Origin: Candidatus Staskawiczbacteria bacterium
GTDB taxonomy: Bacteria; Patescibacteriota; Minisyncoccia; Minisyncoccales; Staskawiczbacteraceae
NCBI GenBank assembly: GCA_943354455.1
Contig: CALRCB010000001.1
Coordinates: forward strand, 1 to 38,952
Length of the DNA stretch: 38,952 bases
Reading direction: 5' to 3'
The notes under the pieces are model-generated. The model was not told the origin of the DNA. It saw nothing but the letters and a program-made list of their open reading frames with translations, and did not search any database. Shown in pieces: positions 3,799-16,469 of the stretch (its first letter is position 1; the number at the start of each line of letters is the position of its first letter). A program made the translations under genes and the position numbers.

Positions 3799-4305
3799 AT
3801 GTCAGAAAAATTACAAAGAACATTGGTGTTATTAAAACCTGATGCATTACATCGGGGTATTGTTGGTGATATTTTGCATCGGTTTGAAAGAGTTGGGGCT
3901 AAAATGGTTGGTTTAAAAATGTTGGTTTCTGATAAGGACGCGGCATCAAGACACTATACCGAAGATTTGGCCAAAAGAAGGGGAGAGAAAGTAAGAAACA
4001 TGATGATAGAGATGATAACTTCAGGCCCAATTATTGCCATTGTGTTTGAAGGAATTGAAATTGTGGAAACGGTTAGAAAATTGGTCGGGTCAACCGAGCC
4101 AAAGTCCAGCGCACCAGGAACCATTAGGGGAGATTTTAGTCATGTTTCTTTTGAATACGCTGATGCCAAGCAAATTCCGGTGATGAATTTAATTCACGCC
4201 TCCAGCTCGCCCGAAGAAGCCGAGGTAGAAATAGGCGTTTGGTTTAAGCCAGAAGAGACAGTAGTTCATATCCCAAGTTATACCAAATATACGCTTTCAG
4301 AATAA
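3799..4305 (+). CDS. ndk: Nucleoside diphosphate kinase
   Basis: TLVLLKPDALHRGIVGDIL, TIRGDF and NLIHASSS (active-site His region) are present. Confidence 0.9.
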   Translation: MSEKLQRTLVLLKPDALHRGIVGDILHRFERVGAKMVGLKMLVSDKDAASRHYTEDLAKRRGEKVRNMMIEMITSGPIIAIVFEGIEIVETVRKLVGSTEPKSSAPGTIRGDFSHVSFEYADAKQIPVMNLIHASSSPEEAEVEIGVWFKPEETVVHIPSYTKYTLSE

Positions 4306-4318
4306 TGGGGTATTTTAG

Positions 4319-4350
4319 AGCAAAAACAGGCCAATTGGCCTGTTTTTGCT
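4319..4350 (+). terminator. Perfect 14-bp hairpin after ndk (probable terminator); marks the left edge of the GC-rich island
   Basis: The arms agcaaaaacaggcc and ggcctgtttttgct flank the loop aatt. The T-run lies inside the 3' arm. Confidence 0.6.
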
Positions 4351-4399
4351 TGGCCAGACGCGAGCAAGGCCGGCTTTGCAGGATTGCCCGTCTCGGCTA

Positions 4400-4428
4400 T
4401 TGACAAACGTTGTTACTGGGTGTATAAT
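4400..4428 (+). promoter_or_regulatory. Consensus sigma70-type promoter for the DGR target gene
   Basis: TTGACA (4400-4405), a 17-nt spacer and TATAAT (4423-4428) lie about 60 nt upstream of the target ORF. Confidence 0.6.
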
Positions 4429-4487
4429 GAAGTCATAGGGTAAATAGCTTATTTTAAGCCTATTCCCTTGTACTTTTCAATGAAAGG

Positions 4488-5174
4488 ATGATGACGATGT
4501 CCAAGACATTGATCACATCTCGCGACCCCAAAGGCCTACAAATTGCTACCCTTTTTGATGCTGCGCTCAACAAAGCGCCGCTCGATTCCGAGCGCGCCCA
4601 GCGCCTCATTGAGAGAGGAGGTGAATTCCAGGATGGTATTCTGGAGCTCGTGGCAAAACTGTCGGCCCCCGAACCAATCGCCAAGTGGACCGAAAAAGAC
4701 GGCGTCATTAAGCTGACCGTCACGTCCGATGGCAAGACCGGCCAAGAGTGGATTTCCCACTTTGAGGCCAATGGAGTCCGGCTTTCAAAATGGGCTAAGG
4801 GTGTTCTCCTGTCGCCGGACTTCAAGCCGACCAACGGTGTGACCACAAAAATCGAAGTCTTGAAGGGTTCGCTCTTTACTGACAACGATCGGATCACATC
4901 GAAGATTCGCGTCGAGGCCGATAAGCGGAAGTTTTCTAAGCCCAATGCGGAAGTCGCTTGTCTCATCCGTGACATGTTCACAGATGCAGAAATGGAAGCG
5001 ATGGGTCTTTATTGGATTGTGGTGTTCCACGAACCCATTAAGGATTCCGTTGGCGTTCCTGGCCTTCTGAGCGCGTATCGCAGTGACGATGGTCGATGGC
5101 TCGACACCGACTATGGCAAGCCTGACTACTACTGGAGTCAGGACAGCGGTTTCGCTTTCGCGTCTGGCAAGTAG
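4488..5174 (+). CDS. DGR variable (target) protein with a C-terminal VR, probably a C-type-lectin-like fold (start more likely the ATG at 4497)
   Basis: The last 42 codons are the variable repeat. The C-terminus reads LLSAYRSDDGRWLDTDYGKPDYYWSQDSGFAFASGK. AGGA at 4485-4488 is spaced best for the ATG at 4497. GC content is much higher than in neighbouring genes. Confidence 0.85.
   Translation: MMTMSKTLITSRDPKGLQIATLFDAALNKAPLDSERAQRLIERGGEFQDGILELVAKLSAPEPIAKWTEKDGVIKLTVTSDGKTGQEWISHFEANGVRLSKWAKGVLLSPDFKPTNGVTTKIEVLKGSLFTDNDRITSKIRVEADKRKFSKPNAEVACLIRDMFTDAEMEAMGLYWIVVFHEPIKDSVGVPGLLSAYRSDDGRWLDTDYGKPDYYWSQDSGFAFASGK
5043..5170 (+). repeat. DGR variable repeat (VR)
   Basis: It aligns base-for-base with 5513-5640 (offset 470). 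There are 16 mismatches, each opposite an A in the other copy. Confidence 0.93.
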
Positions 5175-5235
5175 GTTCTTGATGCTTATTTCCCTTTGCC
5201 CCTTTGGGCACTTGGAACATTTGCACTTTGAACGT

Positions 5236-5283
5236 GCGCTTTATGAAAAAATCACAAAGATTTTTTCATAAAGCGCTTTTTTT
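5236..5283 (+). terminator. Rho-independent terminator of the DGR target gene
   Basis: A perfect 18-bp stem (gcgctttatgaaaaaatc / gattttttcataaagcgc) with loop acaaa is followed by T7. Confidence 0.85.
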
Positions 5284-5284
5284 A

Positions 5285-5293
5285 TGCTACAAT
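5285..5293 (+). promoter_or_regulatory. Extended -10 promoter candidate (TGcTACAAT) that could drive the TR RNA
   Basis: The sequence tgctacaat sits immediately after the terminator. It matches the TGnTAYAAT pattern seen at 167, 8161 and 26361. Confidence 0.35.
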
Positions 5294-5512
5294 ATTTGCG
5301 GTAGTAGGCGATTATGTAAAAGACTAAGGTTTTTTGCTGCCAAATCCAGTATCCATATATTGAGAATATCTTAGGCCACGGCTTTAGGTAGAGTAGTATA
5401 TGAAATTAAAAAAAAGAAGATACTTGGTGCGAGATATTAAGGCATTAAGATGCCAAATAAAATACAGTCCCAAGAATATTCAAGGGACAGTGGCACAGAT
5501 GATGTCTCGTAC

Positions 5513-5640
5513 AATTCCGATGGCGATCCTAACCTTCTGAACGCGAATCGCAATGACGATGGTCAATGGCTCAACACCAACTATGACAAGCCTGACAACA
5601 ACTGGAATCAGAACAGCGGTTTCGCTTTCGCGTCTGGCAA
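5513..5640 (+). repeat. DGR template repeat (TR), a non-coding RNA template
   Basis: This is the adenine-bearing copy of the repeat. In the VR frame it contains 11 AAY (Asn) codons, all 11 of which are altered in VR. Confidence 0.93.
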
Positions 5641-5646
5641 CTCTCT

Positions 5647-6090
5647 TTATTTCTCCTCCTTTTGTATATTGGAGGAGTTTTCTTTTGCAAGCTGTTTTAC
5701 TAATTGCCCGTTCCAACCGCCCAACATTTTACCGACTTCATCTATTTTTAATGACAGTGCAATATATTTTTTATTGTCTAAGGATTTTGTTTCCCAGAGA
5801 ATCATTAGGAGTATTTTTAATAAATCATTTTTCTTAATTGCAAAAACTACGTAGGGTAGTTTTTTGGTGCGGTCAAGAAAACTAGCAGTGGAAACTGCTT
5901 CTATTATTTCGACAAATAAATTATCAATACGTTGTCCTAGCGAGTGCCTGTGGACTTTTGGTAGTAATGGGTAATAATCAAACCAAGCTAAATAAGCACT
6001 TTTGGTTTTTTCTAAAATAGGCAAAAGTCGCAAGGTCTGGGGGGGGGGATTAGAAGCCCCGTTATTATTATGAAAATTATTTGCAACCAT
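5647..6090 (-). CDS. avd: Avd-like DGR accessory protein (four-helix-bundle family); true start uncertain (ATG 6090, or TTG at 6033 or 6024)
   Basis: PLLPKVHRHSLGQRIDNLFVEIIEAV and KIDEVGKMLGGWNG resemble Bordetella phage Avd (PIAQSIPRKHG..., AEVGRILGSWI). The size and the position next to TR and RT fit. Confidence 0.8.
   Translation of the reverse strand: MVANNFHNNNGASNPPPQTLRLLPILEKTKSAYLAWFDYYPLLPKVHRHSLGQRIDNLFVEIIEAVSTASFLDRTKKLPYVVFAIKKNDLLKILLMILWETKSLDNKKYIALSLKIDEVGKMLGGWNGQLVKQLAKENSSNIQKEEK
5653..5686 (+). terminator. Terminator-like hairpin plus T-run immediately 3' of TR (inside the 3' end of the antisense avd gene)
   Basis: A ctcctcc / ggaggag stem of 7 bp with an 11-nt loop is followed by ttttctttt on the + strand only. 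Confidence 0.45.
6039..6048. repeat. G10 (C10 on the minus strand) homopolymer tract
   Basis: I counted ten consecutive G. The tract lies in codons 15-18 of the avd ORF if the ATG at 6090 is used, and 21 nt upstream of the RT ATG. Confidence 0.9.
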
Positions 6091-7074
6091 CGGTTTGAAG
6101 ATTTAATTCATATTGAAAATCTGCTTTTGGCATGGGAAGAATTTTTGAAAGGTAAAAAACAGAAAAAAGATGTCCAGCAATTCCAGTTCAATCTTATGGA
6201 TAATATCCTATCACTGAACCGCGACCTTAGCAATGGAACGTACCGCCATGGCAAATACTACGAATTTAATATTTCTGACCCAAAACCCCGCATCATCCAC
6301 AAAGCCACCGTGCGCGACAGGTTATTGCACCACGCAGTGTATCGGGTTTTGTACCCATTTTTTGATGACACTTTCATTGCTGATTCTTTTTCCTGCCGAA
6401 TCGATAAAGGTACCCACAAAGCCATGGCCCGGTTTAAAACATTCGCCAATATTGTTTCAAGGAATAACACCAAAACCTGCTGGATATTAAAGTGCGATAT
6501 TAAAAAATTCTTTGCCAGCATAGATCAGAATATTTTGCTAAATATCTTGGATGAAAGGATTAAAGATAAAAGAATCGTTGCCGTATTACAGAATATTATT
6601 GAAAGTTTTAATTCGGGCAGGCCGAGAACCGGCCTGCCGTTGGGAAACTTAACCAGCCAGTTATTCTCCAATGTGTACATGAATGAATTTGACCAGTTTG
6701 TAAAACATAAGCTAAAACTGAAATACTACATCAGGTATGCTGATGACTTTGTAATATTTTCCGATGATAAAACATATTTGGAGCAGGTAATTATGCTGAT
6801 GGCAGAATTTTTGCACGATACCCTAAAACTTACTTTGCACCCCGATAAAATTTACATCAAAACTCTGGCCCAAGGAGTGGACTTTTTGGGCTGGGTGCAC
6901 TTTTTTGACCACCGGGTGTTGCGGACGGTGACTAAAGACAGGATGTTTAAAAAGTTAGAAAAAACTAGAAAGCCACAAGTGCTGGCTTCGTATTTGGGAT
7001 TGTTGGGGTATGGGGATACCGGGAATATTAAAGAAAAAGTTTTCCACTTGACTGGGTTTTTTAAAAAATTATAA
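6070..7074 (+). CDS. DGR-type reverse transcriptase
   Basis: LPLGNLTSQLFSNVYMNEFD carries the DGR-specific (I/L)GxxxSQ motif, and YIRYADDFVIFSDD carries the YxDD box. At 334 aa it lacks maturase and endonuclease domains. Confidence 0.93.
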   Translation: MKIICNHRFEDLIHIENLLLAWEEFLKGKKQKKDVQQFQFNLMDNILSLNRDLSNGTYRHGKYYEFNISDPKPRIIHKATVRDRLLHHAVYRVLYPFFDDTFIADSFSCRIDKGTHKAMARFKTFANIVSRNNTKTCWILKCDIKKFFASIDQNILLNILDERIKDKRIVAVLQNIIESFNSGRPRTGLPLGNLTSQLFSNVYMNEFDQFVKHKLKLKYYIRYADDFVIFSDDKTYLEQVIMLMAEFLHDTLKLTLHPDKIYIKTLAQGVDFLGWVHFFDHRVLRTVTKDRMFKKLEKTRKPQVLASYLGLLGYGDTGNIKEKVFHLTGFFKKL

Positions 7075-7082
7075 TTAAGATA

Positions 7083-7207
7083 GCTCTGAAGTCCTGTAAA
7101 TATTCTATATTACATTTATATCGGGAGTCCAATATCCGCTATGGCCTTGGTCATGGCATGAGGACACCCACTTAAAATTTCATAGAAATTTTAAAGGAAG
7201 TCAGAGC
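7083..7207 (+). other. Structured intergenic segment 3' of the RT (candidate ncRNA or RNA element, function unknown)
   Basis: A closing stem gctctga (7083-7089) / tcagagc (7201-7207) is extended by tcc/gga. An inner stem pairs gggagtcc (7123-7130) with ggacaccc (7162-7169). A 9-bp hairpin spans 7172-7194. Confidence 0.25.
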
Positions 7208-7210
7208 AAC

Positions 7211-7244
7211 AAAAATCCGCCCTACGTAGGCGGTTTTTTGTTTT
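7211..7244. terminator. Bidirectional terminator between the RT (+) and rpmB (-)
   Basis: The sequence aaaaa-tccgcc(c)tacgtaggcgg-tttttt has A5 on one side and T6 on the other. Confidence 0.7.
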
Positions 7245-7257
7245 AAGTAATATATAA

Positions 7258-7449
7258 TTATTTAGCCATTGCCTTCATGCACTTAGTGCAGGCAAGGACT
7301 CGTGCTTTAGTGCCGGTAAGCAAACGAACCCATTGTAAGTTTGGGTATTTCCTCACTTTTTGAGTAGGGTTGTATTTTCCTCGCAATTTTACTAATTGCC
7401 AAGACATCCCGGATTTTTTCTTGCAGATTGTACAGATTTTTGATGCCAT
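7258..7449 (-). CDS. rpmB: 50S ribosomal protein L28
   Basis: The 63-aa product is MASKICTICKKKSGMSWQLVKLRGKYNPTQKVRKYPNLQW...VLACTKCMK, an L28 pattern with a Cys pair. Confidence 0.85.
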   Translation of the reverse strand: MASKICTICKKKSGMSWQLVKLRGKYNPTQKVRKYPNLQWVRLLTGTKARVLACTKCMKAMAK

Positions 7450-15639: not shown

Positions 15640-16469
15640 TGAAAATATATAAACCTACAACTCCATCAAGGCGCGGAATGACAGGAATTGATTTTTCTTT
15701 GCTTACAAAAAAGCGAGCTGAAAAAAGCCTGGTAAAATATGTTAGAAGAAGTAATGGAAGGTCAAAGGCTTCTGGCAGAATTACCGTGCGCCACAAGGGT
15801 GGAGGAGTGAAAAAATTATACCGGATTGTAGAATTTGCCCAAACTAAAATGGATATGCCTGCTACAGTAATTGCTTTAGAATACGACCCAAATAGAACCG
15901 GTTTCATTGCCTTGATAGAATATACTGATAAAACTAAGCAATACATTATTACCCCTCAAGGATTAAAAGTAGGAGATAGTGTTTTATTTGCAGAAACTGC
16001 TCCATTGACTCCAGGTAATCGAATGAAATTAAAGAATATCTCTGTAGGAACGCCGGTATATAATATTGAATTAGAGTCTGGAAGGGGGGGGATTTTGGCA
16101 AGATCGGCCGGAAATAGCGCACAAGTATTGGCCCAAGAACACGGATTTACTAACTTAAAAATGCCTTCAAGTGAAGTGCGAAAGGTAAAAGATGAATGTT
16201 TTGCCACGATTGGAATGGTTTCAAATCCAGAAAACAGATTTTATCGGGTTGGAAAAGCTGGTAAATCAAGATTAAAAGGAAGACGGCCACATGTTAGAGG
16301 ATCAGCGATGAATCCGGTGGACCATCCACACGGAGGAGGAGAAGGAAGGCAGCCAATTGGATTAAAACATCCAAAGACGCCATGGGGTCTGCCAGCACTG
16401 GGAGTGAAAACTCGATACCGAAAGAAATGGACAAATAAATATATAATTTCAAGAAGAAAGAAAAAATAA
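15639..16469 (+). CDS. rplB: 50S ribosomal protein L2
   Basis: RHKGGGVKKLYR and MNPVDHPHGGGEG are present. Confidence 0.97.
   Translation: MKIYKPTTPSRRGMTGIDFSLLTKKRAEKSLVKYVRRSNGRSKASGRITVRHKGGGVKKLYRIVEFAQTKMDMPATVIALEYDPNRTGFIALIEYTDKTKQYIITPQGLKVGDSVLFAETAPLTPGNRMKLKNISVGTPVYNIELESGRGGILARSAGNSAQVLAQEHGFTNLKMPSSEVRKVKDECFATIGMVSNPENRFYRVGKAGKSRLKGRRPHVRGSAMNPVDHPHGGGEGRQPIGLKHPKTPWGLPALGVKTRYRKKWTNKYIISRRKKK

Follow-up and report, generated by a model that had tools for sequence, protein, structure and literature searches.

Diversity-generating retroelements (DGRs) rewrite a gene of the cell that carries them, which raises the question of how cells restrain such an element. Surveys list many DGRs that look inactive without explaining why, and we know of no described on/off control for any DGR. 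In the element of Bordetella phage BPP-1 (mtd-VR, avd, TR, Sp, brt), sequence is transferred from a template repeat (TR) to a variable repeat (VR) with adenine-specific changes, AAY codons occupy the variable positions, and the reverse transcriptase (RT) has Avd as a partner. In a study of the Bordetella components, cDNA synthesis was reported to need bRT, Avd and DGR RNA, and these three together sufficed for it (PMC6182149). We describe a DGR with the same properties, including an RT of the same clade, at positions 4400-7074 of a 38,952-nucleotide (nt) stretch of DNA (the window). The window is contig CALRCB010000001.1 of assembly GCA_943354455.1, a Candidatus Staskawiczbacteria metagenome-assembled genome (MAG).

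DGRs are enriched in bacteria of the candidate phyla radiation (CPR), which hold a CPR-restricted RT clade, 'DGR clade 2', whose targets are without recognisable domains, according to Roux et al. 2021 (PMC8144416). That paper and Wu et al. 2018 describe CPR DGR targets as small and lacking a signal peptide, a transmembrane segment or a known domain (PMC8144416, PMC5758913). A 'B3' gene order is found in 90% of CPR DGRs and is nearly absent elsewhere, with VR classes of unknown fold, in the 'CPR set' of Wu et al. 2018 (PMC5758913). The window comes from the same host group. We take its gene order, target(+)/VR, TR, avd(-), RT(+), to be B3; the text of Wu et al. 2018 states the name and prevalence of this order, not the exact arrangement. 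Nothing sets the window element apart from the clade. Because the CPR enrichment, the CPR RT clade and the B3 order were already published, the element is an ordinary member of a known clade, and the novelty implied by the original prediction for the DGR as such was overstated.

Two other features recur across related cassettes and appear undescribed: a simple-sequence repeat in avd, and a permuted, structured DGR RNA. No mention of the avd repeat, an avd/RT overlap, a structured leader or a GC-rich target was found by full-text searches or in the searched parts of Wu et al. 2018 and Roux et al. 2021, and Avd itself is not mentioned in the latter (PMC8144416). We favour, though not strongly, the reading that the avd repeat is a slipped-strand switch gating mutagenesis. 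We give roughly even credence to the combined reading for the CPR DGR clade, in which an avd contingency switch acts on hypermutation and a permuted DGR RNA carries its structured domain, probably with the priming site too, 5' of the template.

The VR (5043-5170, plus strand) forms the last 43 codons of the target gene and aligns without gaps to the TR (5513-5640, plus strand) over 128 nt, at an offset of 470 nt. The original prediction placed 16 mismatches opposite TR adenines. Both their count and their positions were reproduced, and re-alignment found 0 among the 16 at a non-adenine TR position. With the TR base given first, they comprise 11 A>G, 5 A>T and 0 A>C. Of the 128 nt of the TR, 38 are A, which makes the hypergeometric probability of every one of the 16 differences landing on an A 2.4e-10. 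In the target frame, every one of the 11 AAY codons within the repeat is altered, to D, G, S or Y, again as predicted. Four more A-containing codons are changed (GAT>GTT twice, CAA>CGA and GAC>GGC).

The similarity between VR and TR ends sharply on both sides and the repeat is not extendable. At the 3' boundary, the place of an IMH/IMH*-type element in DGRs, both copies close with a GC-rich, substitution-free segment of 28 nt (5143-5170 and 5613-5640), in which VR and TR are the same. A search by the non-A positions of the TR found no second VR on either strand of the whole window. An open reading frame (ORF) of 134 residues (5450-5854) crosses the TR, and one ENA assembly lists it as a gene. 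In all likelihood this ORF is spurious, because the TR keeps the frame of the target C-terminus.

Both protein components expected of a DGR are intact. The RT (6070-7074, plus strand, 334 residues) contains the predicted LGNLTSQ and YADD motifs, located at 6640-6660 and 6736-6747, and matches Pfam RVT_1. LGNLTSQ fits the (I/L/V)GxxxSQ pattern of DGR-clade RTs. Its best PDB relative is 8ub7_A (E = 2e-42, RT residues 11-298), with group II intron and retron-type RTs at about 1e-19. The entry is a 328-residue 'Reverse transcriptase' present in nine PDB entries, presumably the Bordetella phage bRT from the bRT-Avd cryo-electron microscopy work. The placement of the RT thus rests on its best PDB relatives and motifs; NCBIfam holds no DGR-RT model and gave sub-threshold matches to other RT families only. 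The avd gene (5647-6090, minus strand) encodes 147 residues of the bAvd four-helix-bundle family. The predicted ORF was confirmed and passes the Pfam PF22296 bAvd gathering score (43.4 bits against 40), while its NCBIfam DivGenRetAVD score of 54.7 lies under the cut-off of 80. In the source annotation of the MAG, the RT is a 'hypothetical protein' and Avd a 'four helix bundle protein'. Together, the adenine-specific repeat pair, the DGR-type RT and Avd, and the natural variation confined to the VR described below uphold the DGR interpretation.

The avd and RT genes are arranged head to head and share 21 nt (6070-6090), with the avd ATG antisense to RT codon His7. The promoter of each gene is therefore expected inside the other gene, and the 5' ends of the two mRNAs are complementary. 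The same head-to-head arrangement is found in related cassettes.

From genomes and metagenomes we collected 81 cassettes of the same geometry, with a median offset of 472 nt and a median repeat of 127 nt. In these cassettes avd is encoded on the opposite strand, with its end about 6 nt past the TR, and the RT is divergent from avd. Across the 81 cassettes, 1299 of 1348 VR/TR mismatches are at TR adenines, divided into A>G (61%), A>T (25%) and A>C (14%). Among GTDB species representatives, 265 carry the target family. The metagenome scan met nothing nearly identical to the window; the best RT identity there was 73%.

Some loci depart from the standard cassette. A target homologue without avd, RT or TR within 5 kb downstream occurs at L020, L030, L031, L033, L041, L048, L054, L062, L063, L065, L067, L073, L079 and L080. 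These lone homologues could be remote targets of a distant DGR or fixed former targets. Locus L075 (1630-3616 and 5001-5516) has a second target copy about 1.4 kb past the RT.

The repeat in avd occupies positions 6039-6048, where it reads G10 on the plus strand and C10 in avd codons 15-18 (N-PPP-Q). It lies 42 nt past the avd ATG and 21 nt upstream of the RT ATG; the N-terminal Avd peptide spanning the tract is MVANNFHNNNGASNPPPQ. A simple repeat is present at this site in 98 of 107 related avd 5' regions. The repeat types comprise C7-C12 (mainly C9 and C10), (CCAA)n of up to 11 units, (CAAT)7, (CCAG)8 and (CA)8-12. The avd site, 1.25% of the 1.03 Mb of sequence in related loci, holds 92 of the 105 such repeats, and several of the 13 others are the same avd site on shortened contigs. 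Among elements that are 94% identical, one carries C12 and others (CCAA)n. CCC accounts for only 16% of the proline codons in the window. The enrichment at one site, the exchange of repeat types and the low CCC usage indicate that the homopolymer is maintained at the nucleotide level.

The repeat affects the reading frame between the conserved ATG and the body of Avd. Where it is present, 32 copies are in frame (ON) and 66 out of frame (OFF), so that one third are ON. Where it is absent, seven of nine copies are in frame and the other two have a degenerate C-run; the difference from repeat-bearing copies is significant (Fisher P = 0.011), as is that from a one-third expectation (P = 0.008). 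Scoring to the stop codon was possible for 61 OFF alleles; in every one the avd core runs without interruption for 107 codons or more, as in ON alleles, and they are therefore not decaying pseudogenes. An alternative start codon further downstream is lacking in some OFF alleles (L007, L056).

Tract length also varies within the strain of the window. Besides the window itself, a second NCBI assembly (L163, 1 mismatch in 4929 nt) and a 49-kb ENA contig have G10. A 32.8-kb ENA contig of the same sample has G11, as deduced from its RT protein P0128, which is called with an N-terminal extension ending KVWGGGIRSPVIIM; no avd is called on that contig. G12 occurs in the Logan contig L082, with 0 mismatches in 1348 flanking nt. 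In a second pair of loci, L023 and L026 have G8 and G9, respectively, and are otherwise identical over 840 nt. In silico, G10 gives an Avd of 147 residues, while G11 and G12 give products of 37 and 26 residues. More generally, G7, G10 and G13 yield 146-148 residues, and G8, G9, G11 and G12 yield 25-37.

These properties resemble the simple-sequence repeat contingency loci of Haemophilus, Neisseria and Campylobacter. Shared features are a homopolymer or tetranucleotide repeat directly after the start codon, a frame shift by length change, varied repeat types at one site and a mixture of ON and OFF alleles. (CAAT)n and (CCAA)n are themselves repeat units of Haemophilus contingency genes. Whereas those loci control surface antigens and methyltransferases, the gene here encodes a subunit for mutagenic reverse transcription, and the variation is seen in assembled sequences, not in clonal culture. 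We know of no simple repeat in the avd gene of BPP-1. In the proposed mechanism, a hypermutable repeat in the first codons would gate avd, with slippage shifting the frame. Hypermutation would be on in some lineages, such as the one with G10 here, and locked off in others, such as those with G11 and G12. The intact cores of the 61 scorable OFF alleles lend indirect support to reversible switching. The gating of mutagenesis is the simplest reading because cDNA synthesis in the Bordetella system requires Avd.

Runs of nine to eleven identical bases are known slippage sites for RNA polymerase. It is possible, if unlikely, that the repeat does not act as a heritable switch and that transcriptional slippage, or ribosomal frameshifting on the C-run, lets each allele yield a little Avd, keeping the protein scarce. 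The in-frame share of exactly one third, hence no selection on the consensus frame, agrees with such decoding, as does the intact core in all 61 scorable OFF alleles. However, seven cassettes have tetra- or dinucleotide repeats at the same site, a classic form of slipped-strand switch in DNA on which RNA slippage works poorly, and tract length varies at the DNA level between otherwise identical sequences.

The repeat also lies in the 5' leader of the RT, 9-30 nt before the RT ATG, where the divergent transcripts overlap. In every cassette it keeps a constant distance from the RT start, and the 21-nt overlap makes the 5' ends complementary. Its length might thus act mainly on the RT, by tuning RT translation or the antisense pairing between the avd and RT mRNAs. 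We regard this as quite improbable: cassettes without the repeat are mostly in frame (seven of nine), indicating that the repeat is translated within avd, some OFF alleles lack an alternative start downstream, and no structure related to the RT was seen to involve the tract.

Illumina platforms are prone to errors at G/C homopolymers and some loci come from very low-coverage assemblies, such as L023 and L026 at about 1x, so the tract differences and the out-of-frame avd genes could be sequencing or assembly errors in an Avd that is always in frame. Occasional errors would, however, leave most genes in frame rather than one third. The repeat, its tetranucleotide forms included, is present across many studies and platforms, and G10 was recovered in three assemblies, with G12 two bases off. 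We therefore consider errors a very improbable source of the differences and retain the slipped-strand switch as the favoured reading.

Two further observations concern such tracts. The only other G/C run of at least 8 in the window, a G8 tract at 16084-16091, was considered as a second switch and set aside; it specifies a GRGG motif within an L2-like ribosomal protein, and its occurrence there is probably a coincidence of coding. Locus L047 (3660-4517 and 6004-7395) carries a second, partial avd/RT copy, which also has a C8 tract at the avd 5' end.

The target sequences themselves vary within the population, as judged on assembled and consensus sequences rather than reads. The 90%-identity cluster of the target consists of four proteins whose residues 1-186 are identical save for V55M. 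The same four proteins differ at many positions in residues 187-220, within the VR, and represent three VR alleles. The Logan contig L001, from an independent run, aligns gaplessly to window positions 4334-5638 with 18 differences in 1305 nt. All 18 are in the VR, 16 of them at TR-A sites and two adjoining such sites, and the TR is identical. Polymorphism at the A-templated sites, proposed as a check in the original prediction, is thus borne out across assemblies. One ENA sample supplies two VR alleles, with one contig ending at the target gene and another beginning within it, and two more assemblies begin at window position 5146, just beyond the last variable site. A heterogeneous population yields assembly breaks of this kind.

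Since variants of the same strain differ almost wholly at TR-A sites in the VR, the DGR is active, and we conclude with high confidence that window positions 4400-7074 hold a complete, currently active DGR of the CPR-specific type. That the cassette is an inactive relic, or its repeats an ordinary diverged duplication, is scarcely credible: nothing speaks for it but the general fact that many catalogued DGRs look inactive, and against it stand three VR alleles that differ at TR-A sites on an otherwise identical background with an invariant TR, the adenine specificity (P = 2.4e-10) and the integrity of every ORF. In another pair of loci, L101 and L102 are 100% identical over 1398 nt around avd and RT, tract included. 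Their VRs have 16 and 13 mismatches to the TR, respectively, and a 12-nt indel lies between VR and TR.

The interval between VR and TR spans about 340 nt and is non-coding. It contains a terminator-like hairpin with an 18-bp perfect stem and a T-run (5236-5283, plus strand), which is expected to end the target transcript. The hairpin is followed by an extended -10 element, TGcTACAAT (5285-5293, plus strand), conserved ahead of the TR leader, with a predicted start near 5300. About 210 nt ahead of the TR are strongly conserved across related cassettes and correspond to a structured leader of the DGR RNA (5300-5512, plus strand).

In the window copy, the leader forms helices P1 (5307-5310/5338-5341), P2 (5317-5320/5333-5336), P3 (5322-5325/5328-5331), P4 (5354-5361/5395-5402), P5 (5367-5371/5386-5390), P6 (5372-5377/5380-5385), P7 (5427-5438/5501-5512), P8 (5441-5446/5449-5454) and P9 (5467-5471/5484-5488). 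Helix P7 ends exactly at the first TR base. The leader also carries the motif GAUACUUGG (5419-5427, plus strand), of which ACUUGG is best conserved. An RNAalifold consensus of 59 non-redundant leaders contains 55 pairs in ten helices, 48 of these pairs with compensatory changes. In the alignment, 95.3% of cells are paired, compared with 77.3% after shuffling (0 of 500 shuffles reach the observed value) and 37-48% when the partners are slid by 1-3 columns. The covariation score is 0.662, compared with 0.299 shuffled and at most 0.18 slid by 1-3 columns. Rfam 15 has no family for the leader (searched as a region, E <= 1), nor does any family match anywhere in the window at gathering score.

A second long-range helix connects the leader to the sequence past the TR. 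Nine nt starting 4 nt after the TR (5644-5652) pair with the nine leader bases directly 5' of the conserved UACUUGG, AAAAGAAGA (5412-5420, plus strand), the proposed primer-side strand; in the window eight of the nine pairs form. Over 58 distinct sequences, 87.7% of cells are paired, compared with 78.7 +/- 0.9% for shuffled partners (0 of 1000) and 47-61% when slid, and the helix covaries, as seen at pair 1 (A-U/C-G) and pair 6 (U-A/C-G). P7 and this leader:tail helix use one contiguous leader strand, so that both ends of the TR would be clamped and the TR looped out.

The 3' tail of the DGR RNA (5641-5686, plus strand) consists of the pairing strand 5644-5652, a hairpin (5653-5659/5671-5677) and a U-run (5678-5686). 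Across the family, a conserved 12-nt stretch 3' of the TR is followed by a covarying hairpin (76 sequences) and a U-run, and the three together resemble an intrinsic terminator. The avd stop codon is 6 nt past the TR, and the tail is antisense to the last avd codons. Pairing of a UUGC after the tail hairpin with the 3' end of the TR was also considered and dropped: identical TR ends are joined to different tails, and this stretch is part of the avd coding sequence.

In our model, a discrete RNA of about 390 nt (roughly 5300-5686) would be transcribed from its own -10 element and would comprise the 210-nt leader, the TR and the short tail with its hairpin and U-run. The leader strand 5412-5438 would pair with 9 nt after the TR and 12 nt before it, so that the TR is extruded as a loop. 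The RT-Avd complex would then copy the TR into cDNA, misincorporating opposite A, and the cDNA would replace the VR in the target gene. By inference, the primer strand lies 5' of the template.

The architecture of this RNA can be compared with that of BPP-1. There, the TR flanks are joined by a duplex of TR-upstream sequence with the 3' spacer, beside the template:primer duplex, and an Avd-binding stem-loop lies just past the TR (bioRxiv 10.1101/2023.10.23.563531). In both systems a duplex brings the TR flanks together, but the topology differs. The structured Sp of BPP-1 (140 nt, priming A56) is 3' of the TR, while the large structured domain in the window is 5' of it. A structured spacer of about 140 nt of the BPP-1 type, with a priming adenosine and stem-loops that bind RT and Avd, was not found 3' of the TR in the window; about 46 nt follow the TR, with one hairpin and a U-run. 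This tail hairpin sits where BPP-1 has its Avd-binding stem-loop. The gene arrangement differs as well, with avd upstream of the TR on the same strand in BPP-1 and downstream and antisense in the window.

In topology only, the predicted RNA resembles the msr-msd RNA of retrons, in which a structured, primer-bearing part lies 5' of the template and a duplex between the 5' part and the 3' region determines where reverse transcription begins. The two are unrelated in sequence and in family. The RT here is of the DGR clade, its product is meant to replace the VR, and the priming nucleotide in the window RNA is a prediction.

The target gene (4488-5174, plus strand, 228 residues) follows a promoter-like site, TTGACA-17-TATAAT (4400-4428, plus strand), with 12 of 12 matches. 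The protein has no sequence match in Pfam, NCBIfam or the PDB, and a PDB profile search returned nothing usable. Its family contains at least 1374 proteins, none of them named, and every source name indicates Patescibacteria/CPR. The N-terminal region of about 60 residues is helical and variable, while the core (60-228) is highly conserved and carries the VR at its C-terminus. At the N-terminus, no hydrophobic segment indicative of a signal peptide or a membrane span was seen, in agreement with the published descriptions of CPR targets. A first structural model reached a predicted local distance difference test score (pLDDT) of 69; with a deeper alignment of 120 homologues, the core reached a pLDDT of 90.5 and a predicted template modelling score (pTM) of 0.87. 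Foldseek found no significant match for the core model in the PDB (best E = 0.11) or BFVD (best E = 0.16).

The C-type lectin fold is typical of DGR targets, with an Ig fold as the alternative for displaying the VR, and it is the fold of Mtd in BPP-1. C-type-lectin-like domains crowd the top Foldseek ranks for the window target, at E = 0.1-1 and TM-scores of up to about 0.3, none of them significant. Unlike that of Mtd, the fold of the window target is not recognisable as such.

The target stands out by its base composition, with a GC content of about 52% compared with about 37% in the surroundings within the window. In 38 cassettes the mean GC is 58.6% for the target, 38.6% for avd, 38.1% for the RT and 42.0% for the flanks, and the target exceeds the flanks in 38 of 38. 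Depletion of A by DGR action was rejected as the source of this richness, as the AT skew of the target is positive.

Directly downstream of the VR is a strand-specific array of CTTNG motifs with 7-8 nt spacing (5175-5232, plus strand). Over the first 100 nt after the VR in 81 loci, the motif density is 3.3 per 100 nt, compared with 0.39 in the background and 0.42 on the opposite strand. The array may mark the recipient site in place of the cruciform of BPP-1. The window also has a small hairpin after the VR (5197-5210).

Several points weigh against the interpretation of the locus as a whole, the switch and the RNA model included. The tract lengths are those of assembled consensus sequences, in which homopolymers are error-prone, and an in-frame share of one third is also the chance result for a repeat in non-coding DNA. 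The window copy of avd has no recognisable Shine-Dalgarno sequence before its ATG. For the RNA, the ends, the priming nucleotide and what the leader does are inferred. A consensus hairpin of the BPP-1 cruciform type downstream of the VR was not supported across the family, and judging from the Foldseek matches to a predicted model the target fold does not appear assignable to the C-type lectin fold. Full-text search found no paper tying DGRs or Avd to phase variation or simple repeats; Paul et al. 2017, the principal source on DGRs of CPR bacteria, lies outside the coverage of that search, so an earlier description is possible.

Of the genes named as flanking the cassette, ndk (3799-4305, +) stood. 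The rpmB assignment did so less well, with a weak L28 call at 7258-7449 (Pfam E = 8e-4, below gathering score). Positions 7048-7243 contain a promoter-like site (11 of 12 matches) and, after it, an irregular hairpin of 125 nt with a bidirectional terminator; the minimum free energy is -59 kcal/mol (z = -6.6). The element has no Rfam match and is probably a host small RNA. The hairpin region (7083-7243) was rejected as a part of the DGR, being absent beside related cassettes despite its z-score. ARAGORN found no tRNA or tmRNA gene in window positions 1-38952, which include a ribosomal-protein region.

If neither the avd switch nor the permuted RNA is upheld, the locus is one more active member of a catalogued clade. 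If the RNA model holds, the covarying leader would be a second natural way to position a template for cis-primed, adenine-mutagenic reverse transcription, and it would be useful for studies of the mechanism and for engineering compact DGR-based diversifiers. The switch predicts that tract length in long reads correlates with VR diversity. If it is true, a slippery repeat in an essential accessory gene would provide a concrete, testable restraint for the largest cellular DGR clade. One hypermutable sequence would then gate another hypermutation system, and lineages would alternate between bursts of target diversification and locked-in variants.

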